From positions 1-32,150 of the forward strand of contig JBAXAI010000039.1 in NCBI GenBank assembly GCA_037142615.1: a DNA stretch of 32,150 nt, given 5' to 3'. The stretch's first letter is position 1; each line of letters begins with the position of its first letter. Positions 3,116 through 12,788 of the stretch are shown piece after piece. The notes under the pieces are model-generated. The model had not been told where the DNA came from. It did no database searches and saw only the letters and a list, made by a program, of their open reading frames with translations. The stretch comes from Spirochaetales bacterium (GTDB lineage: Bacteria; Spirochaetota; Spirochaetia; JABEVK01). The position numbers and the translations under genes were made by a program.

Positions 3116-4223
3116 CGAATACATCTGCGGGCATCTGGGCGAGGATCAGGCCAACTACTACGGGGCCGTCGTTCCACCGATCTTCCAGAACTCGCTGCAC
3201 GTTTTTCCCACCATCGAGGAAATGCAGGCCTTTGACGGAAAGCAGGAAGGAAAGTACATGTACGGCCGGCATCTGAACCCGACCGTCGACATCGTACAGA
3301 AGAAGCTGGCCGCCCTGGAAAGGGCCGACAAAGCGGCGCTCTTCGGGTCGGGAATGGCGGCCATTACGGCGGCCATCCTTTCGTGCGTCAAAACCGGCGA
3401 CCACGTCGTGGGGCTTCACCACATGTACGGGCCGGCGCACCGTTTTCTTGGCGAGTACCTTGCCCGATTCGGAGTCGAGGCAAGTTTCGTTTCTGGCGCG
3501 AGTCTCGAAGAGCTTGAGCAGGCCCTGAGGCCGAATACCAGGTTGATCTACCTGGAAAGCCCCACCACCTTCTACTTCGCCCTTCAGGACCTCGCGGCCG
3601 TGGCCACCCTCGCCAAGGCCCGCGGAATTCTGACCGTCATCGACAACACCTGGTGCACGCCACTTTACCAAAAGCCCCTCGAGTTGGGAATCGATCTGGT
3701 GGTGCACTCGGTCACCAAGTACCTCGCTGGTCACAGCGATGTGATTTCGGGGGTTGTCGCCGGCCGGGAAGAGCTCATCGAGCGCCTCAACCGCAACGAG
3801 CGTGATCTGCTGGGTGGCATTCCCGGGCCCTTCGATGCCTGGCTCATCCTCCGCGGCATGAGGACGCTCCCGGTCCGCATGCGCCAACATCAGGAAAATG
3901 CCCTCGTCGTGGCCAAGTTCCTCGAGGGCCATCCGCGGGTGTCGGGGGTCAACTGGCCAGGACTGGCGTCCCACCCCCAGTACGAGCTCGGCCGCAGGCA
4001 GATGAAGGGCTACTCCGGGTTGCTGAGTTTCGAACTTGACTGCGGTGAACGCGAACGCAACCAGTTCTTCAACGCGCTCAAGCTGTTCCGCCTCGGCGTG
4101 AGCTGGGGCGGTTTTGAAAGTCTGGTCGTGAAAGGACCGAACAACCTGGTCAGGCTTGCGGTGGGACTTGAAAGGGCCGAAGATCTGCTTGCCGACCTCG
4201 AAACCGCCTTCAAGAGTTGCTGA
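3108..4223 (+). CDS. PLP-dependent trans-sulfuration family enzyme (cystathionine beta/gamma-lyase / gamma-synthase-like)
   Basis: AAGGAGA at 3094-3100, then TTG3108 overlapping the MFS end. Motifs YGRHLNPT, SGMAAI, DNTW, HSVTKYLAGHSD (PLP lysine), SWGGFESL, RLAVGLE. Confidence 0.9.
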   Translation: MTDEYICGHLGEDQANYYGAVVPPIFQNSLHVFPTIEEMQAFDGKQEGKYMYGRHLNPTVDIVQKKLAALERADKAALFGSGMAAITAAILSCVKTGDHVVGLHHMYGPAHRFLGEYLARFGVEASFVSGASLEELEQALRPNTRLIYLESPTTFYFALQDLAAVATLAKARGILTVIDNTWCTPLYQKPLELGIDLVVHSVTKYLAGHSDVISGVVAGREELIERLNRNERDLLGGIPGPFDAWLILRGMRTLPVRMRQHQENALVVAKFLEGHPRVSGVNWPGLASHPQYELGRRQMKGYSGLLSFELDCGERERNQFFNALKLFRLGVSWGGFESLVVKGPNNLVRLAVGLERAEDLLADLETAFKSC

Positions 4224-4249
4224 GAAACAAGGAAGAAAAGGAGGAATAC

Positions 4250-5044
4250 ATGGGCAAACTTGCCGTCGAAATCAATGAGGCCCGAGTCGAGCCGGGCACG
4301 CTGAAGCTCTGGTGGCTTGGCCAGGCGGGCTTCGCCTTCAAAACTGTCTCGGGGTTGGTGGTGTACGTCGACCCGTACCTGTCCGATTCGGCCAAACGCC
4401 TCCACGGCTTCCGTCGGTTGTCGCTGACACCCCTCGAGGCCGAGGAGACCAAGGTTGACCTGGTGGTGCTCACCCACGAGCATACCGACCACCTCGACCC
4501 GGACGCCCTTCCGGTCATCGCCGCGAAGAACCCGAACTGCATCTTCGCCGCGCCTTCGGGATGCAACGACGGCTTGGACACGGCAGGGATTGCGGCCAAA
4601 CGGCGGCTGCTGCTGGAGCCGGGCAAGGCCGTCTCGTTCCGAGGCGTCACCGTGCACGGCACACCGGCGGACCACCTGCCGCACTCGCCGACGGCTCTGG
4701 CGCTGGCCCTCGATCTCGAAGGGGTGAAGGTGATGGTGAGCGGTGACAGTTCCTGGCGCCCGGACTTCTTCGCCCCGCTCTACCGTCTGGGTCTCGACGT
4801 AGTGATCCCCTGCATCAACGGCGGTTTTGGAAACATGGGGCACACCGATGCGGCGCGGCTGGTTGGCGAGGCGGGTGCACCCATCGCCCTCCCATGCCAT
4901 TACTGGACCTTCGCCGAACAGGGCGCCGGAGACCCCATGGGCTTCCTCAATGCCTGCCTGCGCGAAGCGCCCAAGGTTCAGGCCATGCTCCTCGAGCCCG
5001 CAGAATGCCTAGTCGTCACCGCGAGAACTGACAAGAAACTTTAA
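4250..5044 (+). CDS. Metallo-beta-lactamase-fold hydrolase, UlaG (sugar lactonase)-like
   Basis: GGAGGA RBS before ATG4250. Motifs WWLGQAGF, DPYLSD, THEHTDH metal site, SGDS, PCINGGFGNM, PCHY. Confidence 0.85.
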   Translation: MGKLAVEINEARVEPGTLKLWWLGQAGFAFKTVSGLVVYVDPYLSDSAKRLHGFRRLSLTPLEAEETKVDLVVLTHEHTDHLDPDALPVIAAKNPNCIFAAPSGCNDGLDTAGIAAKRRLLLEPGKAVSFRGVTVHGTPADHLPHSPTALALALDLEGVKVMVSGDSSWRPDFFAPLYRLGLDVVIPCINGGFGNMGHTDAARLVGEAGAPIALPCHYWTFAEQGAGDPMGFLNACLREAPKVQAMLLEPAECLVVTARTDKKL

Positions 5045-5054
5045 GGAGCCTCCT

Positions 5055-5861
5055 ATGAACCGACTGACCGGAAAGACCATCGTTGTGACCGCGGCCTATG
5101 GCGACATCGGCCGCGCAACCTGCCTCCGTTGCTGCGAGGAAGGAGCTACCGTCATCATGACCGGGCGCAAGCCCCAGGCCGAGGGTGAAGTGTTGGCCTC
5201 CCGCCTCGCCGCCGAAGCGAAGGCCGGGAAGGCCGAATACGTGTCGTGCGATGCGTCCTCGCGAAAATCCATCGACGCGATGTTCGCAACCGTCCTCGGC
5301 CGTCATCCCCGGATCGACGTCGTGATCGGCAATGCCGCCACCGTCCACAACGCCAAGTTCCTGGAAGTGACCGCCGAGCATTGGCATGAAACCCTCGACC
5401 TCAACCTCACCGGAAGTTTCCACCTCGGGCAGGCAGCGGCCCGCATCATGGTGACGCAAAAACCGCAGAGCCGGCCTGGGATAGAACGGGGCGTGCGGGG
5501 CAAGATCCTGTTCAACAGTTCCTGGGTGCAAGACACCCCCTGGCCTGATGGAACCTGCTACGTTGTTTCGAAAGCAGGCCTTAAGATGATGGCCCAGTCG
5601 ATGGCCCAGGAGCTTGCCGTGGAAGGCGTGCGGGTCAACCTCGTGGCGCCGGGGATCATCATGGCTGGCTTGACCAAGCAGGTGTACGAGAACTCTCCCG
5701 ATTACGGTCCGCGGGCCACGGCGGCCGTCCCGCTGCGCGAGTTCGGGACGACGCTGCAGTGCGCCGAAGCCTTTCTCTTTCTGGCTTCGGACGAGTCGGA
5801 CTACATTACCGGGATCTCGATGCTGGTAGATGGTGGCGCCAGCCTTCCGCGAAGGGACTGA
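5055..5861 (+). CDS. Short-chain dehydrogenase/reductase (sugar dehydrogenase-like)
   Basis: AAGGAG RBS. Rossmann motif TAAYGDIG (variant of TGxxxGxG), NAA, catalytic S and YVVSK, VNLVAPG, YITG...VDGG. Confidence 0.92.
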   Translation: MNRLTGKTIVVTAAYGDIGRATCLRCCEEGATVIMTGRKPQAEGEVLASRLAAEAKAGKAEYVSCDASSRKSIDAMFATVLGRHPRIDVVIGNAATVHNAKFLEVTAEHWHETLDLNLTGSFHLGQAAARIMVTQKPQSRPGIERGVRGKILFNSSWVQDTPWPDGTCYVVSKAGLKMMAQSMAQELAVEGVRVNLVAPGIIMAGLTKQVYENSPDYGPRATAAVPLREFGTTLQCAEAFLFLASDESDYITGISMLVDGGASLPRRD

Positions 5862-5877
5862 AACTGAAAGCCAACGG

Positions 5878-6984
5878 CTAGGGGATGGATTCCAGCGAGA
5901 AGTTGCTGGCCGAAATCTCCTTGCCGTTGGCAAAGTAGTGCTGGGAACCGTCGAGCCACTGGGTAAAGGCCAGCCTGGTCTTGGGAGTGTGGGCGGTTCC
6001 GCTGGGAAGGATGAGCAAACGGGTGTCACTGCGGCTCGAGTGCCGGGCTCGTTGCCTCGTCTCGTACTCCCTCCGAAAACAGAACACGTTGCGAAGGTCG
6101 GTTCCGTCCACAATGGGAACGTGGAAATCCTCTTCGGCGTTGCTGTTGCCAAGGTAGAGAAGTGACGACGGGTCGAGCTCGAGTCGTCCGATGGCCTTTT
6201 CGGCAAGCTCGAGCGAAAGCAGGCTCGCTTCCGGGGTCGCACCGCTAACCGAGGGGAGGACGCCTTGAAGCTTGCCCGTGAGGCTTCGCTCCCGGGCGGG
6301 GCTCAGTGTATGCGTCTCCAGACCCAGCCTATCGCAAGTATGAAGCAGAGGGTTTCCCGCGGCGGTTTCAGTTAACAATGCCTTGCGACAACTCACGGCG
6401 AGGGGGACTCCGTAACGTGCAACCCAGCGCCAGAGCAGATTCATGAGGGTCAATGGCTCTCCCCCACGTTCGAACGCCACCAAGAGCAGACCCGTTTCCG
6501 AGTCTTGAAGGAAGTGAAGGTTCGCGACGGCTCCGAAGTACGAAACTTCCGGGAAGGGCAAGGAAACGTGGACCAAACAGAAACCAAATCGCCTGCTCCT
6601 CGGCTCGCGTGGTTCGGGAGTCTCGGCGAGCTTCTGACTGGTCCACAGACCGCTGTCGCAGAGCCAGCGGCGCACAGTCTCATGGTCGATGTTGTAGCCC
6701 TTGTCACAAAGGGCCTTGGCGAACAAGGTGGGCCCAACTCCTTTGTAGGAAGAAGAATACTCGTGCAGTACAGCTTCTCTGACAGAGGAAGGAAACGCCC
6801 GGTTGGACTCGCGGCCGCGCCCGCGGTGAACGAGACATTTTTCGCCTTCCTCACCGTAGCGTTTCCAAATCCTCCGCATTTGACGGTTGGAAAGTCCCAA
6901 GGACACAGCCGCCGAGTCCAGGGTTATTCCACCCAATTCGACCTGACGCACGACTAGCAGCCTTTGCTCTGCTCCGGTACTCAT
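5878..6984 (-). CDS. IS1202/ISNCY-family transposase homolog with intact HTH but apparently no DDE triad (inactive or domesticated)
   Basis: ATG6984 with AAGGAG at 7000-6995. N-terminus LGLSNRQMRRIWKRY...LVHRGRGRESNR...GPTL...ETVRRWL...GLW and C-terminal EDFH...DLRNVFCF...WLDGS follow the recalled family consensus. The expected QxDGS, YxDK and KGRVER read HVSLP, SCRKA and RERSLT. Confidence 0.75.
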   Translation of the reverse strand: MSTGAEQRLLVVRQVELGGITLDSAAVSLGLSNRQMRRIWKRYGEEGEKCLVHRGRGRESNRAFPSSVREAVLHEYSSSYKGVGPTLFAKALCDKGYNIDHETVRRWLCDSGLWTSQKLAETPEPREPRSRRFGFCLVHVSLPFPEVSYFGAVANLHFLQDSETGLLLVAFERGGEPLTLMNLLWRWVARYGVPLAVSCRKALLTETAAGNPLLHTCDRLGLETHTLSPARERSLTGKLQGVLPSVSGATPEASLLSLELAEKAIGRLELDPSSLLYLGNSNAEEDFHVPIVDGTDLRNVFCFRREYETRQRARHSSRSDTRLLILPSGTAHTPKTRLAFTQWLDGSQHYFANGKEISASNFSLESIP

Positions 6985-7038
6985 CAACTCGCCGCTCCTT
7001 GGTTGCTCCACAAATAGCCCTTCAAGCCCGACCAAAGT

Positions 7039-7067
7039 ACTGTAAACCCATCAGGAATCTCTGTCAA
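7039..7067 (-). promoter_or_regulatory. sigma70 promoter for the transposase-derived gene
   Basis: Minus strand TTGACA (7067-7062), N17, TACAGT (7044-7039). Confidence 0.7.
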
Positions 7068-7199
7068 TTGTAAGTTGTTAACAAGTTGTCTCAACTGGGA
7101 GGGACACTTCAATCGAGTGGGCGCGCCTGAAGAAAATTGACGGCGGTGCGAAATACCGAGAAGCTTTCTGCTACCCCGCGACGGGGGTAAGGGGGCGCT

Positions 7200-9584
7200 A
7201 TGGAACCCATGGCCAACGTGTTGTGGTTTGAGGATCTCGGAAAGGCTGACGTTTCGGCGGTAGGAGGCAAGGCCTCCTCCTTGGGAGAACTGACTTCTCG
7301 TACCCAAGTGCCCGTGCCCCCTGGCTTCGCAACGACTTCCCGGGCCTACCGGTTCTTCCTGGAGCAGACGGGCCTGGACACCGTTCTGCACGACCTGCTG
7401 CAAGGGCTCGACGATGTGGAGAACGGAAGCAACCTCCGCGAGGTCTGTCTGTCCCTCCGCAACGCCGTTCTGGCCGCGCCTTTCCCGGCGACGCTGGAAC
7501 AAGAGGTTCGCTCGGCTTACGGTCTTCTTGGCGAGCGTGCCGGGTCTGATGAGCCTTTTGTTGCCGTCCGCTCCAGTGCCACGGCTGAGGACCTCCCCGA
7601 TGCGAGTTTCGCGGGTCAACAGGATTCCTACCTGAACGTTCGAGGCGCAGGGGAGGTTCTTGAAAGGCTCAAACAGTGCTACGCCTCGGCGTTTACCGAC
7701 CGGGCGGTCTATTACCGGTCCAAGAAGGGTTTCTCCCACCTCGAAGTCTCCATGAGTGCGGTGATCCAGTTGATGGTCTTCAGCGAGGCTGCCGGGGTCG
7801 TGTTCACCGTCGACGTGGCCACCGGAGACGAGTCCCAACTCCTGATCGAGGGTGCCTTGGGCTTGGGGGAGTACGTGGTTCAGGGGGTTGTTACTCCGCA
7901 GAGCTTTCATGTGAGGAAGTCCGACCTCTTCCTGCTGAAACAGGAGATTCACGACCAGTTGGTCCGGTTGGTGCGCAGGCCAGGCGGCGGTTGCGTCGAA
8001 GAACCTGTCCCTCCCGAGCTTCGAGGTCGGAGTGTGCTCACGAGAGAGCAGATCCGGCAGCTCTCGGAATACGCGCTGGCCATTGAAAGGCACTACGGCT
8101 CGGCGATGGATATCGAGTGGGGGATTGAGGAACGCACGGGACAGCTCTGGATTCTTCAGGCACGACCGGAAACCGTGTGGTCGCGAAAGGCCGCCAAGGC
8201 GGAGCCTAAGGCACTGGCCCGCGCCGACGCTTCTGACCGGGTCATCCTCGTGCGCGGGCTGCCTTCCAGCCCCGGGAGGGTCAGTGCGCGGGTGAGGGTG
8301 ATTCTCGATCCCGCCGATATCGACCAGTTCCAGCAAGGAGAGATCCTGGTGACGCCGATGACGGCCCCGGATTGGGTTGTGGCCATGAAGCGCGCGGCCG
8401 CCATCGTGACCGACACCGGTGGAATGACCTGCCATGCGGCTATCGTCAGCCGCGAATTGGGGATCCCCTGCATCGTGGGTACTCGCAGCCGGGGCTATCT
8501 GGCAACCGAGGTCCTTAGAACCGGGCAGGAAGTCACCGTTGACGCCACCAACGGCGTCGTTTTTGAAGGCCGGATCGACGACCTCGTGAGCCCCCTGCAG
8601 GCGCCTTCCGCCCTTTCGACGCCGGTCCCGGCGGAGTCCTTTCCGGTCACCGGGACCAAGGTCTACATGAACTTGGGCGACCCCGACAGCGCGGGGCGCT
8701 ATGCCGGTCTTCCTTGTGACGGCATAGGACTGATGAGGGAGGAGTTCATTTGGACCAATTCGATCCACGAGCACCCTCTTCACCTCCTGGCAACCGGACA
8801 AAGTGAGAAGGTCGTCGACCTGCTGGCGGAGGGTTTCCGAAAGGTCTGTCAGGCGTTTGCCCCTCGGCCCGTGGTGTTGCGGCTAAGTGACTTCAAGTCC
8901 AGCGAATACCGCGAGCTTTTGGGCGGCGACCAGTATGAGCCCCTGGAAGCCAGCTCCCTGCTCGGGTGGAGGGGAGCCTCGCGCTACTACGACCCCAAGT
9001 ACCGTGAGGCGTTCAAACTCGAGCTGAAGGCCGTCAGGCGCGTACGGGAGGAGTTGGGTTTCAAAAACCTTCATCTGATGATTCCGTTCTGCCGGACCGT
9101 CGAAGAAGCGTCGAAGGTGACGAGCCTGATGGCGGAGGAAGGTCTGACCCGAGGACCGAGCTTCAAGATCTGGCTCATGGCCGAGATACCTTCGAACATC
9201 ATCCTCGCCGACAAGTTCAACGCGTTCGTGGACGGGTATTCCATTGGCTCGAACGACCTCACCATGCTCGTGCTCGGGTGCGACCGCGACAATGACACGA
9301 TGGCCTACCTCTTTGACGAACAGAATCTTGCCATCAAGCGGGCCATCCGCCATCTCATCGAAGTCGCCCATCGCGACGGCAAGACCGTGTCCATCTGCGG
9401 CCAGGCGCCCAGTGTTTATCCGGAGTTTGCCGAGTTTCTCGTGCGAAGCGGCATCGACTCGCTCTCGGTCAACCCTGATGCCGTCAAGTCGACGCGGCGG
9501 TTGGTGGCCCAGGTCGGCCAGAAGCTCATTCTGGACCAACTCACCGGGAAGGGAGTGACCGACGTCGAGGACTACCGCTGGTGA
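7200..9584 (+). CDS. ppsA: Phosphoenolpyruvate synthase (pyruvate, water dikinase)
   Basis: VGGKASSLGE, VAVRSSATAEDLPDASFAGQQ, DIEW, QARPET, phospho-His motif GGMTCHAAIVSRE, GWRGASRY, SIGSNDLT, ICGQAPS. Start is 7200 or 7209. Confidence 0.97.
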   Translation: MEPMANVLWFEDLGKADVSAVGGKASSLGELTSRTQVPVPPGFATTSRAYRFFLEQTGLDTVLHDLLQGLDDVENGSNLREVCLSLRNAVLAAPFPATLEQEVRSAYGLLGERAGSDEPFVAVRSSATAEDLPDASFAGQQDSYLNVRGAGEVLERLKQCYASAFTDRAVYYRSKKGFSHLEVSMSAVIQLMVFSEAAGVVFTVDVATGDESQLLIEGALGLGEYVVQGVVTPQSFHVRKSDLFLLKQEIHDQLVRLVRRPGGGCVEEPVPPELRGRSVLTREQIRQLSEYALAIERHYGSAMDIEWGIEERTGQLWILQARPETVWSRKAAKAEPKALARADASDRVILVRGLPSSPGRVSARVRVILDPADIDQFQQGEILVTPMTAPDWVVAMKRAAAIVTDTGGMTCHAAIVSRELGIPCIVGTRSRGYLATEVLRTGQEVTVDATNGVVFEGRIDDLVSPLQAPSALSTPVPAESFPVTGTKVYMNLGDPDSAGRYAGLPCDGIGLMREEFIWTNSIHEHPLHLLATGQSEKVVDLLAEGFRKVCQAFAPRPVVLRLSDFKSSEYRELLGGDQYEPLEASSLLGWRGASRYYDPKYREAFKLELKAVRRVREELGFKNLHLMIPFCRTVEEASKVTSLMAEEGLTRGPSFKIWLMAEIPSNIILADKFNAFVDGYSIGSNDLTMLVLGCDRDNDTMAYLFDEQNLAIKRAIRHLIEVAHRDGKTVSICGQAPSVYPEFAEFLVRSGIDSLSVNPDAVKSTRRLVAQVGQKLILDQLTGKGVTDVEDYRW

Positions 9585-10399
9585 CCGCGCTCAAGCCGCT
9601 AGTCTACGCCGTGTCGGACTCCGTCGGGGATACGGCCGAGATGGTGGTCAAGGCGGCCATCAGTCAGTTCGGTTCCCAGGCCTTCGAAACCCACCGGAAC
9701 TCCCACGTTGTCTCCGTTGCCGCGATCGAAGAACTCTTTCGGCAGATCGGCGTTAGTGGACGCCGCAGTCTCGTGTGCCACACCCTGGTGTCCCAGGAAC
9801 TTCGTCAAGCCGCGCTGGAGTTCGGGCAGCAGTTTGGAGTTGGAACTGTCGACCTCTTGGGGCCCATTTTGGGCGCGGTGGAGGCTCTTTCCGGCCTCAA
9901 ACCCGAACTCAAGCCAGGGCTAGTCCACAAACTGGACGAAGACTACTTCCGGCGCATCGAGGCGGTTGAGTTTTCGGTCAAGTACGACGACGGGAAGGAC
10001 TGCGCCGGGATCCTGCTGGCCGACATCGTCCTCGTTGGGGTCTCACGTACCTCCAAAACTCCGTTGAGCATGTTTCTTGCGCACAAGATGATGAAAGTCG
10101 CCAACGTGCCGCTGGTACCGGAACTTCTTCCCCCCGCCGAACTTTTCGCGATTCCGGGCCGCAAGATTTTTGGCCTGGTGATCGACCCCTTCAAGCTTAA
10201 CCGGATTCGCCAGGAACGCCTGCGGGTCTTAGGAATCGAAGAGACTTCCGACTACGCCGACATGGCAAGGATCGGACAGGAACTGGCCTACGCCCAAACC
10301 ATCATGCGGCGGTTGCATTGCCAGGTTCTTGACGTGTCGAACAAGGCTATCGAAGAAACGGCCAACTTCGTGCTCGAGATGGTCCGCAACTCCCCTTGA
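9581..10399 (+). CDS. ppsR: PEP synthase regulatory kinase/pyrophosphorylase (DUF299)
   Basis: GTGA overlap with ppsA. Motifs SDSVGDTAE, YFRRIEAVEF..KYDDG, GVSRTSKTP, KAIEETA. Confidence 0.93.
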   Translation: MTALKPLVYAVSDSVGDTAEMVVKAAISQFGSQAFETHRNSHVVSVAAIEELFRQIGVSGRRSLVCHTLVSQELRQAALEFGQQFGVGTVDLLGPILGAVEALSGLKPELKPGLVHKLDEDYFRRIEAVEFSVKYDDGKDCAGILLADIVLVGVSRTSKTPLSMFLAHKMMKVANVPLVPELLPPAELFAIPGRKIFGLVIDPFKLNRIRQERLRVLGIEETSDYADMARIGQELAYAQTIMRRLHCQVLDVSNKAIEETANFVLEMVRNSP

Positions 10400-10423: not shown

Positions 10424-12484
10424 TCAGCGACCCACCGTTGCTTTGGTAGGGACTTCTTGCAGCAGCAGGATCTCCGACATGTCCAGCGCTGGCAACGCGA
10501 TCTCGAGGCCGTCCAAGAGTTCCTTCCCTGTCAGCACCCGTTTTTCACCGGAGTTTGCCCGCATCACCTCGAAAGTGGCCGACCGCGCCAGACCGCGGAG
10601 GTGGACCACTGTCTTGGAGCTTCGACTTCCGCTGCGAAACAACAGGACCACGGCCGCGCTTCCGTCGCGTTTGCAGAACTCGATCGCGTCCCACGCATCG
10701 GCCTCCGTAGACGGCGGCAGCAGGTGATACACATCCTGGCGCAAAAGACTGCGATACTGCTTGTAGACCTTGAAGTTTCTCGCAAGCGCGTCGCGAACTT
10801 CCTGGGGCAGGAGTGAGATACGTTCGGAGAGCTGCCCGTGGAGAGTCCCTATGCCACAGAGGCCCATCATGCGACTGCGGATGATCGTGTCCAAGACGAC
10901 GGGGTCGCGGCTGCCTTCGGCGGTGAGGATTTGCGCCTCGTTGTGGGCGGCCGGATAAACGTAGCTGGCGTGGATTTGGCCTTGGCGGACGCCCAGCGCC
11001 GTGCCGGTATTGTCCGACAGCCAATGAGAGGTCACCGTGCGGACCAAGCCGTAGTCCAGCCGGCTCGGGTAACCGCACTCCTCGAGCATCAGCGCCGGAA
11101 AGCGCTCGCGCAGTCGTCGCCAAATCTCGTACTGTCCCCTCAACGCCGCCAAAGCACCCTCAACCGCCTGGTGACCGTGGTCCGCGCAGTCGCACGTCGG
11201 ACCCGGTAACCCCGAGTTGTCCCATTTGACCCAATCGAGACCAAAGCGCTCGACGGCGTCACCCATCACTTTGGCCAGGTGATCGACCACGGCCGGATTG
11301 CCGGTACAAATCTGCGTGACGGGGGTGTTCCAGATGGTGAGCTGGATGTCCTTGCCGTCTTTACGGGCAACAAACTCGGGCGGAATGACGTTGCCGACCA
11401 ACTTGCTGTCAACCACTTGCGGTGCGAACCAAAGGCCGAACTTCATTCCGGCCGCATGGACCTTTCTCGAGATTTCGGCCAGTCCGCTGGGGTACTTCTC
11501 CCGGTCCTCCCGCGCGTAATTGCCCACTCCCGCGAACCAGTTGCCGGCGCCGCTCTTGTCCGACCCCTCGTACCAGCTCGCGTCGATGTAAAAAAGATCG
11601 ACCCCGAGCTCTGCCGCGAAAGGAATCTCCTCGAGGATCGCCTTCTCGACGCCCTGAGCCTCCGTAGCCCAGATGTCGTAGACGATCCAGGGGAAGTTCT
11701 TCGGCACGGGAGACATGATGTGCCTCAGGTGGTCGTGCATGACCTTCAGCGATTCGTCGAGGTCCCCATGACTCAACCCGAGAAACATCTTTGGCGACCG
11801 TAGCGAGGAACCTGGCGACAGATCGCACCCGTTGGTATCGAGATCGCAGTGCAGCAGCGTACCGCCGGTTCCCTGGGGCGCGACGTGCACGGTCCACTGG
11901 GATTCCCACTCGACGCCGAGGAAGAGAATCTCTCCCGCCGTCACGTTCTCGATGGCCACCCAACCCGCCGAAGACGGGCTGTTCCAACCGCCGCCCTTGA
12001 CCGTTGCGGAACCGAGACTGGCGTGCTTGCGGTAGTCGGTCCGGCTCAGATGGTGGATGACGAGGTCCGCCGGCTCTGCCGAGAGGTAAAGGCTGATCGG
12101 CCCGAGCGCCCGGACCTCCGTGATTGGGGCAGAGCCGGTGTTTCTCAGCTCCGCTTGGAACTCCATGACGCCGGCAACCGCCGAACGGGTGGCCTTCCAG
12201 TCCAAGTTGAGGCCTTTCTTGCTGGACCAGCGGGCAGTGACTGCTTCCGCCCCGTGCTTGCCTGGGAGAACTTCGCAGGCGACCAGCTCAAGACCCTCGG
12301 GGAGGGCCTGTTTGGCGGCATCGCCCAAGTTCCCAAGAGTGCAAACCGGACCAATTTTGGTGTTCGAGGCCGCCCAAGCGTGTCCCGACGCCCCGTTGTC
12401 CAACTTGTGAACGGCGATGCCGTGCTTGTCGGACGAAACCTCGAAAATCAACCCTGTAGCGCTCGACCCACCTTCGACTGTCAT
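10424..12484 (-). CDS. GH36 alpha-galactosidase family glycosidase
   Basis: GGAGG RBS (12495-12491) before ATG12484. Motifs FYIDASWY, EKYPSGL, MKFGLWFAP, WVKWDN (nucleophile), WLSDNT (acid/base), plus a GH36 C-terminal domain. No signal peptide. Confidence 0.85.
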   Translation of the reverse strand: MTVEGGSSATGLIFEVSSDKHGIAVHKLDNGASGHAWAASNTKIGPVCTLGNLGDAAKQALPEGLELVACEVLPGKHGAEAVTARWSSKKGLNLDWKATRSAVAGVMEFQAELRNTGSAPITEVRALGPISLYLSAEPADLVIHHLSRTDYRKHASLGSATVKGGGWNSPSSAGWVAIENVTAGEILFLGVEWESQWTVHVAPQGTGGTLLHCDLDTNGCDLSPGSSLRSPKMFLGLSHGDLDESLKVMHDHLRHIMSPVPKNFPWIVYDIWATEAQGVEKAILEEIPFAAELGVDLFYIDASWYEGSDKSGAGNWFAGVGNYAREDREKYPSGLAEISRKVHAAGMKFGLWFAPQVVDSKLVGNVIPPEFVARKDGKDIQLTIWNTPVTQICTGNPAVVDHLAKVMGDAVERFGLDWVKWDNSGLPGPTCDCADHGHQAVEGALAALRGQYEIWRRLRERFPALMLEECGYPSRLDYGLVRTVTSHWLSDNTGTALGVRQGQIHASYVYPAAHNEAQILTAEGSRDPVVLDTIIRSRMMGLCGIGTLHGQLSERISLLPQEVRDALARNFKVYKQYRSLLRQDVYHLLPPSTEADAWDAIEFCKRDGSAAVVLLFRSGSRSSKTVVHLRGLARSATFEVMRANSGEKRVLTGKELLDGLEIALPALDMSEILLLQEVPTKATVGR

Positions 12485-12788
12485 GAATGTCCTCCGAACT
12501 GAGGGTACTCTGGAATGCCGTACCACAAGAGGGCGGAGCGCGGGCGGACTCGCTAGGAATGTCCTAGCCGCGCCCCACTTGGATCTCGGAATCCTCCAAG
12601 AGGCACAACAGGCGGCCCAGTCCAACTCGGTACCGCCAGAACTCCGACCAGGTTCCCTGCAGCTTCGTGCGGGTAGCACAGAAGGCCTTTCGGCCGGCAG
12701 CTCCGAGGATTTTCCGCCTGAGGGGGGCACTTTTTCGGCTGGCACGTGTTACACAAGAGGTACGGGGTCGAAAGACCCGGAGGATCCC

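Follow-up and report, generated by a model that had tools for sequence, protein, structure and literature searches.

That DDE transposases can be recruited as transcription factors whose binding sites are former transposon ends is a familiar textbook idea from eukaryotes, where proteins such as FHY3/FAR1, derived from Mutator-like elements, act on sites that descend from transposon ends; for such transposon-derived sites Feschotte reportedly proposed a network-wiring model. Insertion sequences (IS) also encode end-binding regulators, among them InsA of IS1, OrfA of IS911, the Tn5 inhibitor and the Mu repressor, which shares the end-binding domain of MuA, and IS ends can supply outward-facing -35 hexamers. 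Here we describe a gene, X, in a stretch of 32,150 nucleotides (nt) from a Spirochaetales bacterium (contig JBAXAI010000039.1 of GenBank assembly GCA_037142615.1, positions 1 to 32,150), which we call the window. At window positions 5881-6984 of the reverse strand X encodes a DDE-less protein of the IS1202 family (ISNCY_2-like; also labelled P0001). On the evidence set out below, X is fairly probably a domesticated ISTde1-type transposase that acts as a transcription factor on sites derived from IS ends.

Among described bacterial systems TldR, a group of nuclease-dead, RNA-guided repressors derived from TnpB, is the nearest parallel (10.1101/2023.11.30.569447, PMC13622181). TldR likewise reportedly goes back to a DNA-targeting enzyme of a transposon, which became a transcription factor after the loss of its catalytic activity; its ancestor, however, was an RNA-guided RuvC nuclease and its targeting depends on a guide RNA, whereas X comes from a DDE transposase and would rely on a helix-turn-helix (HTH) and on IS-end-derived sites. 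In a literature search over titles and abstracts we found no bacterial DDE transposase domesticated as a regulator, and the TnpB-derived TldR was the only bacterial case. The eukaryotic factors (see also bioRxiv 10.64898/2026.08.24.746577) resemble the situation proposed here in that a transposase without catalysis persists as a DNA-binding protein, and dispersed sites derived from transposon ends become cis-regulatory elements. They differ in that X is bacterial, that its sites are few and clustered around the gene, and that an IS terminus may supply the sigma-70 -35 hexamer. With the IS-encoded regulators X would share a transposase DNA-binding module that binds ends and controls transcription, but those proteins are either truncated or separate, come from active elements and regulate the element that encodes them, while X is full length, has no active element in its genome and has its sites at host genes.

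The relatives of X that retain the DDE triad are ordinary mobile elements. A profile-free search of 1.84 billion representatives with X gave 3489 relatives at E ≤1e-3 and 17 at 1e-30. The DDE-intact ones are multicopy, with ten near-identical copies in one metagenome-assembled genome (MAG) of Hydrogenedentota, nine in a MAG of Hydrogenedentales and three to five in spirochaete genomes, and they form discrete units of 1272-1602 base pairs (bp). Their ends are inverted repeats of about 50 bp that begin with TGT and contain two subrepeats ACTCnnTAGAAATGTCAC each, 25 nt apart, and 17 of 21 copies are flanked by target duplications of 16-19 bp. For the ISTde1 subgroup of the IS1202 family, a preprint lists an HTH, a DDE domain with an extra DD pair, TGT ends and direct repeats of 15-17 bp, and it also names a Q downstream of the E as a feature of the IS1202 family (10.1101/2022.12.17.520857). 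The traits of the DDE-intact relatives are consistent with this subgroup.

In X the same architecture is present without the active site. The best hidden Markov model family for X is that of the ISTde1 subgroup (formerly within ISNCY; NCBIfam NF033594, "ISNCY_2"), with which X shares the N-terminal HTH, a colinear RNase H-like core and a C-terminal domain, but its score of 100.8 bits lies below the cut-off of 250 and covers only model positions 2-193 of 368. Pfam recognizes only HTH_29 (residues 8-62), HTH_28 (7-58) and HTH_32 (37-108), and this double HTH is presumed to be the sequence-specific DNA-binding part. We located the catalytic positions in alignments of 29 sequences and, separately, in 158 distinct full-length relatives. 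Among the latter, 113 carry the motifs FGE.vQ.DGS.H.WF, Y.D(K/R) and SPQAKGRVER; all three catalytic residues are missing from 29, and some of them from 16. A first-pass annotation made from the letters of the window had proposed that all three catalytic motifs of X are replaced, which proved correct within one residue of register: VHVSL stands for QxDGS, SCRK for YxDK and ERSLTG for KGRVER, and no acidic residue occupies any catalytic position in the alignments (Table 1). Throughout the clade of X the replacements vary (V/L/I, R/P/H/Q/A/N and T/L/I/M/R at the three positions) and are non-acidic in every member. With all three catalytic carboxylates lost, X would be unable to cut or join DNA. 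X also retains one residue of the extra DD pair (D161, invariant across 70 aligned sequences; the second D is S162). The canonical Q stands seven residues after the E and the nearest Q in X, Q240, is out of register; the C-terminal tail with its HPWR-like motif is missing.

Over residues 1-115, X and the 113 canonical sequences have a mean identity of 0.41, against 0.16 for residues 116-280 and 0.17 for residues 281-368, and the earlier impression that the HTH is the best conserved part was therefore right. An AlphaFold2 model of X, built from 70 aligned sequences, has a mean predicted local distance difference test score of 82.5, near 90 in the core; in it, six helices at the N terminus precede an alpha/beta core and a beta domain at the C terminus. 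Among solved structures, Foldseek places IstA of IS21 (E 3e-12), TnsB, retroviral integrases and MuA at the top. Because the transposase fold is kept while the triad is lost, X is a complete transposase body without an active site. Four residues, C199 (directly before R200), V289, D293 and T295, are invariant in the DDE-less clade (16 of 16). The last three belong to the motif DFHVPIVDGTDL at residues 286-297 (window approximately 6094-6129), which is invariant or nearly so in this clade, and V289, D293 and T295 are rare in canonical transposases; the motif is a candidate for a new functional surface.

X does not behave as a mobile element. In its own 4.27-Mb genome, which is 96.7% complete, protein and family-model searches found X as the sole family match, with no near-identical copy. 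We found neither a right end nor a target duplication around X, and no credible flanking inverted repeats; the spanning pairs are only 70-90% complementary and lie within the SDR and ppsA coding regions. The five other carrier genomes that we searched each have X as the only strong NF033594 match (148-167 bits), the rest being HTH-only matches of about 30 bits. No catalytically intact family member was found in these six carrier genomes, the window's own included, and the earlier suggestion that X might repress related IS copies is thus unsupported. In contrast to the ISTde1 subgroup, X lacks a right inverted repeat and a target duplication; it exists once, and purifying selection maintains it at its fixed locus.

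The fixed position of X is seen in two sets of loci. One metagenome contig of 5677 bp, L083, is collinear with window positions 3191-8868 at 94.5% nucleotide identity and contains the same SDR-X-ppsA locus, so that the syntenic ortholog beside ppsA expected for a domesticated gene has been found. X is syntenic also across the loci L004-L007, and in L006 and L007, which come from spirochaete MAGs, it occupies the same place between two KDPG-aldolase/PfkB pairs. In L004-L007 (approximately 4100-8900) X lies exactly between two tandem paralogous pairs of KDPG aldolase and PfkB kinase genes with about 66% nucleotide identity, a duplication that the ancestral IS may have mediated.

Between the window and L083, X has 50.5 synonymous and 14.5 non-synonymous differences and a ratio of non-synonymous to synonymous substitution rates (dN/dS) of 0.083, which falls in the range of four neighbouring housekeeping genes (0.052-0.128). 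Split by domain, the ratio rises from 0.048 (HTH) through 0.069 (dead core) to 0.160 (C-terminal part). The syntenic pair L006 and L007 gives 0.104, with 0.049, 0.131 and 0.138 for the same three domains, and the ratio is thus low in every domain of both pairs. A value of 1.07 for kdgK2 came from a partial open reading frame (ORF) in a guessed frame and was not used. Selection among transposing copies does not maintain a copy that stays at one locus, and the selection seen here therefore acts on a host function of X. The first-pass proposal of purifying selection on a non-catalytic, DNA-binding role gains support from these two ratios, from the depth of the DDE-less clade and from the clustering of IS-end-like sites described below.

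Phylogenetic analysis was carried out with FastTree (133 rows) and with a quick IQ-TREE run (61 rows); 16 partial rows and rows shorter than 330 amino acids were left out of both, and L093, P0085 and three quarters of the canonical rows were also left out of the second. In the FastTree tree the DDE-less proteins form a 17-row clade that contains X (support 99) and a 6-row clade, and a branch with support 99 separates the DDE-less clades from 108 DDE-intact rows. Over the two analyses 23-24 rows are DDE-less; on both trees the DDE-less label needs two changes, and a single origin may still apply. The members of the X clade for which DNA was available (L003-L007) are all Spirochaetota. Branch lengths within the clade are 0.3-1.3 changes per site, and because these branches are deep the triad was probably lost long ago, with the frame kept since. 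Elsewhere in the family, a long-branch, triad-less relative (L093, genome G377) is nested among DDE-intact sequences and is probably an ordinary decaying IS copy that illustrates neutral decay. The smaller, sister DDE-less clade (P0013 type; L086 1171-2747 and L099, genome G382) has sites like the inverted-repeat subrepeat on both sides of the gene in inverted orientation (+1171, -2747). Two P0013-type copies in G382 are 91% identical over the gene plus about 200 bp, and a search of that genome at E 1e-10 gave no DDE-intact member of the family. The P0013 type may be a non-autonomous element or a stage towards domestication.

What would X bind? A DNA site near X matches the inverted-repeat subrepeat of the DDE-intact relatives. 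A weight matrix was derived from 23 canonical IS-end subrepeats, and true instances score 20-31 bits with it. The two best matches on both strands of the window are S2, in an intergenic position next to a melibiase-family gene, and S1, upstream of X and identical in L083 (Table 1). S1 probably descends from the left end of the ancestral IS, and L003 has a homologous left-end relic upstream of its X gene. In L003 and L005-L007 the matrix found full-strength sites of 22-26 bits. With up to one mismatch allowed, the whole genome of the window contains the core of the L007 site, ACTCGATTGAAATGTCC, only once, at S1 (control 0). Facing site pairs occur in L005 (4032-4072), L006 (3964-4028) and L007 (3940-4007), where a variable, GC-rich spacer of 1, 25 or 28 bp separates the two sites. 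The pairs are located between the first KDPG aldolase gene and a gene for an ABC binding protein, and they resemble a miniature inverted-repeat transposable element (MITE), or an IS with an internal deletion, that has been retained as a divergent-promoter element.

A generic genome scan with the weight matrix gave 138 matches of at least 11 bits against 77 in the reversed-sequence control, with most top matches inside ORFs. The generic matrix therefore defines no regulon here, and stricter pattern and mismatch searches serve better. The pattern was ACTCNNTNGAAATGTCC with at most one mismatch over 17 nt, and the reversed pattern was the control; the site consensus is ACTCTTTAGAAATGTCC and the ancestral IS-end subrepeat is ACTCnnTAGAAATGTCC. 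The six carrier genomes, G000 (the window's own), G230, G334, G401, G402 and G403, have 5, 8, 5, 7, 12 and 8 matches, respectively, with no control match in any of them, and S2 is one of the five in G000. Five relatives without X, four of the same genus and one of the same family, have 3 matches in total vs 5 for the control. The matches also cluster around the gene: 2/5, 6/8, 4/5, 7/12 and 4/7 lie within 40 kb on either side of X (binomial P 3e-3 to 1e-10), a span that was picked after the data had been seen, and G403 was too fragmented for this analysis. With X the only strong family match in the other carrier genomes, no other protein is evident as a cognate of the sites.

The sites stand at promoters of recurring gene families. 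In G230 and G334 the sites near X are intergenic or at ORF edges, mostly between divergent genes. The families that recur beside sites in these genomes and in the more distant G401 are SBP_bac_1, KDPG aldolase/PfkB, UxaE-like, DUF386 and Ldh_2, together with SDR, URO-D-like, 2-Hacid_dh (2-hydroxyacid dehydrogenase) and GntR-FCD followed by E1_dh. In the window's own genome, contig C47 has the order MFS, site, 2-hydroxyacid dehydrogenase, SDR, GntR-FCD, weaker site, E1 alpha, E1 beta, with sites at 6164-6180 and 8717-8736 (L112 3665-3681 and 6218-6237); the same arrangement of genes and sites occurs in G401 at 22-29 kb from its X. A further site in the own genome lies 5' of a DctP TRAP binding-protein gene. 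G230 and G334 agree in all 17 positions of the site at their UxaE-like promoters but have flanks that cannot be aligned there, and X itself differs between the two with a synonymous divergence (dS) of about 1.4. Conserved sites at promoters of the same gene families in several genomes, and rare where X is absent, are what a regulon would be expected to leave.

The layout of the sites adds a link to transcription. In 7 of 12 sites examined, GTCAA lies 14-20 nt 5' of the ACTC end. This is the layout of an IS end, in which the TGTCAA terminus is followed by the binding site, and read outward the terminus is TTGACA, the -35 consensus. At S1 the terminus-like CGTCAA reads as TTGACG towards ppsA, and this hexamer is followed by a 17-nt spacer, GAAGCT and the ppsA ATG at 7200. 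The region is a candidate for a hybrid promoter of ppsA-ppsR.

Taken as a mechanism, these observations suggest that an ancestral IS inserted with its left end towards ppsA and then lost its right end and its catalytic activity. X would still recognize the subrepeat ACTCnnTAGAAATGTCC that its ancestor bound within the IS ends. Solo IS-end relics with this site would front neighbouring carbon-catabolism genes, many of them carrying the TGTCAA terminus as an outward TTGACA. By binding about 14-20 nt upstream of the -35 element, X would control transcription. The position of the sites would fit a class-I activator, and together with the weak -10 element of ppsA it suggests activation. That X binds these sites, and that binding controls transcription, we infer from sequence. 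The candidate targets in the window are ppsA-ppsR (S1) and the melibiase-family gene (S2); elsewhere in the genome they are the 2-hydroxyacid dehydrogenase/SDR/GntR/E1 dehydrogenase locus and the DctP TRAP binding-protein gene. On the best reading, X is a site-specific DNA-binding protein that regulates a small, locally clustered set of carbon-metabolism genes. For ppsA-ppsR, which the first-pass annotation had named as the target, the part of the claim that stands is the position of S1 at a class-I-like distance from a -35-like hexamer facing ppsA; the part that does not is any wider linkage, as ppsA is unlinked in the other lineages examined. As a target in this genome ppsA-ppsR is plausible.

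A broader proposal, which we regard as somewhat short of probable, is a transposon-built network in which a dead IS1202-family DDE transposase is the factor and solo IS ends are portable promoter-operator modules (TTGACA with the subrepeat 14-20 nt inside) that wire sugar-acid, 2-oxoacid and pyruvate/PEP genes, here ppsA, across several spirochaete lineages. If true, insertion sequences can seed promoters and regulons in bacteria, the annotation "ISNCY family transposase" can hide host regulators, and one protein with one 17-nt site would make a simple system for a transposase end-binding module turned regulator. X would also be a concrete candidate regulator of ppsA-ppsR in an uncultured freshwater spirochaete.

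Several points weigh against a regulatory role. The link between X and the sites rests on IS-end homology and co-occurrence, and the gene calls around the sites are crude ORF picks of our own. The sites in the own genome are few (5) and each has one mismatch; one, on contig C18, lies inside a GH31 ORF and is probably a chance match, and the one at the DctP gene has the opposite orientation to the others. S2 and four others of the 12 sites examined have no GTCAA 14-20 nt upstream. G230, G334, G402 and G403 are related and partly syntenic, and hence are not independent replicates. All 40 relatives of the window's genome that were searched, four of the same genus among them, lack X, which makes it an accessory gene of patchy distribution. 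In the four same-genus genomes ppsA has no match at E 1e-50 and the SDR gene has no ortholog (best 34% identity); the pairing of X with ppsA is therefore recent and local, and in other lineages examined ppsA is neither a neighbour of X nor a site-bearing gene. Since the P0013-type sister clade is still IS-like, loss of the triad alone is no proof of domestication. As to expression, three contigs from RNA libraries (two metatranscriptomic runs of one study) match X at 100% identity over 5848-6146, 6132-6329 and 6745-6930. They cover nothing else in 5000-8000, which is no evidence that the SDR gene or ppsA is silent. The hint that X is expressed is weak because DNA carry-over is possible and because the runs were found with words from this very stretch.

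Could X be the inactive transposase of a non-autonomous or dying IS, its sites being neutral relics of IS or MITEs, with no host function or with a leftover role as regulator or inhibitor of transposition? S1 with its CGTCAA does resemble a left-end relic at about the expected place upstream of X, the facing pairs of L005-L007 are MITE-like with two ends 1-28 bp apart, and the sister clade L086/L099 in G382 has inverted-repeat-like sites on both sides and two diverged copies; the patchiness of X (0 of 40 relatives) points the same way. A useless fixed copy, however, should drift towards a dN/dS of 1 and break its frame, and the values of 0.08 and 0.10 hold in all domains. The same explanation leaves X without a right end, a target duplication or a second copy, and in six genomes without an intact family member that could mobilize it or be repressed by it. 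Neutral relics would also not be expected to stay identical where the flanking DNA is saturated with change, to recur beside the same gene families in three lineages, or to go with a promoter and a palindrome kept in 7 of 7 loci. We regard this explanation as unlikely.

Less likely again is that X binds DNA in some capacity other than that of a metabolic transcription factor, as an architectural or nucleoid factor, as a partner or adaptor of a recombinase, or in a defence-like role at the sites. That the whole architecture is under selection, including the dead core and the C-terminal domain, speaks for such a role, since a plain repressor might shed these domains, and so do the clade-specific invariant residues C199, V289, D293 and T295. 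In IstA, MuA and TnsB, all among the fold matches of X, the core and the C-terminal domain mediate the synapsis of two DNA ends. Yet X has no recurrent recombinase, nuclease or defence neighbour; its neighbours are metabolic and vary from lineage to lineage. Moreover, the sites are single in promoter regions and lie at a regular distance from -35-like hexamers, and control of transcription therefore fits better than synapsis. A transposase that uses other catalytic residues, for which the full-length fold and the invariant D161 might be cited, is very improbable given that the triad positions are non-acidic with varying replacements in every clade member, that X is single copy without inverted repeats or target duplication, and that its orthologs remain at fixed loci.

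Table 1. Positions of X and of the features discussed in the text, in window coordinates.
Feature	Positions	Strand	Basis and remarks
X coding sequence, 368 amino acids	5881-6984	-	Uninterrupted ORF and translation; stop TAG at 5878-5880
N-terminal double helix-turn-helix, residues ~1-110	6655-6984	-	Pfam HTH; modelled helices 3-110
V140 codon, position of catalytic D1 (D of QxDGS)	6565-6567	-	Alignment to DDE-intact relatives
R200 codon, position of catalytic D2 (D of YxDK)	6385-6387	-	Alignment to DDE-intact relatives
T236-G237 codons, position of catalytic E (KGRVER)	6274-6279	-	Two alignments with a one-residue register difference; neither residue acidic
AAGGAG ribosome-binding site	6995-7000	-	10 nt 5' of X ATG; kept in L083
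Sigma-70-type promoter of X, TTGACA-N17-TACAGT	7039-7067	-	Promoter scan; both hexamers kept in L083
Palindrome TTGTTAACAA, candidate operator	7075-7084		Just 5' of -35 hexamer
S1, CACTCGATTGAAGTGTCCCT	7100-7119 (core 7102-7118)	-	Rank 2 on both window strands, weight matrix; identical in L083
TTGACG, reverse complement of IS-terminus-like CGTCAA	7137-7142	+	18 nt from S1 core, facing ppsA
S2, GACTCGCTAGGAATGTCCTA	12547-12566	+	Rank 1, weight matrix; intergenic, 5' of melibiase-family gene (10427-12484, -; Pfam Melibiase)

The first-pass annotation had described an intact frame of 368 codons, an AAGGAG ribosome-binding site and a TTGACA-N17-TACAGT promoter, and all of these are present (Table 1). 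A promoter scan found two promoter-like sites in 5700-7300, compared with 0.2 expected from shuffled sequences. The second one, TTGAGA-16-TACAAT at 7067-7094 (-), overlaps the palindrome and lies just 5' of the main promoter of X. A longer reading of X from a TTG at 7035 is unlikely, as homologs align from the ATG and the TTG is only 4 nt past the -10 hexamer.

The palindrome upstream of X is a further conserved element of the locus. TGTTAACA abuts the TTGACA upstream of X in all seven clade loci for which DNA was available (the window, L083 and L003-L007); in the window and in L003 alike, 7 nt are inserted between palindrome and hexamer. The palindrome is conserved although the proteins are down to 33-35% identical to X, and TTGTTAACAA occurs once in the 4.27-Mb genome. 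We take it to resemble operators of the GntR family, and GntR-FCD genes are present in site-bearing loci. The palindrome may be an operator of X itself or of a GntR-type regulator.

X is divergent from ppsA, which is followed downstream by ppsR (Pfam Kinase-PPPase). The SDR-X-ppsA-ppsR block (the ppsA/ppsR part at 7200-10399) looks like accessory DNA of the lineage because ppsA and the SDR gene lack same-genus orthologs. The only syntenic ortholog of the window's copy of X is that in L083; another relative, P0003, is 71% identical to X. The SDR-X-ppsA locus is present in freshwater metagenomes from 15 studies, and in two metagenome runs the DNA contig depth over X equals that of its flanks.

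On the other side, X and the SDR gene are convergent, the stop of the latter lying at 5859-5861. The 16-bp gap between the two genes is as first reported, with no right inverted repeat in it. A terminator scan found no terminator of the T-tract type at 5870-5931. This segment contains a 17-nt inverted repeat (88% complementary, 28-nt loop) that runs across the gap and the 3' end of X, stop codon and final codons included; it may serve both convergent genes as a terminator.

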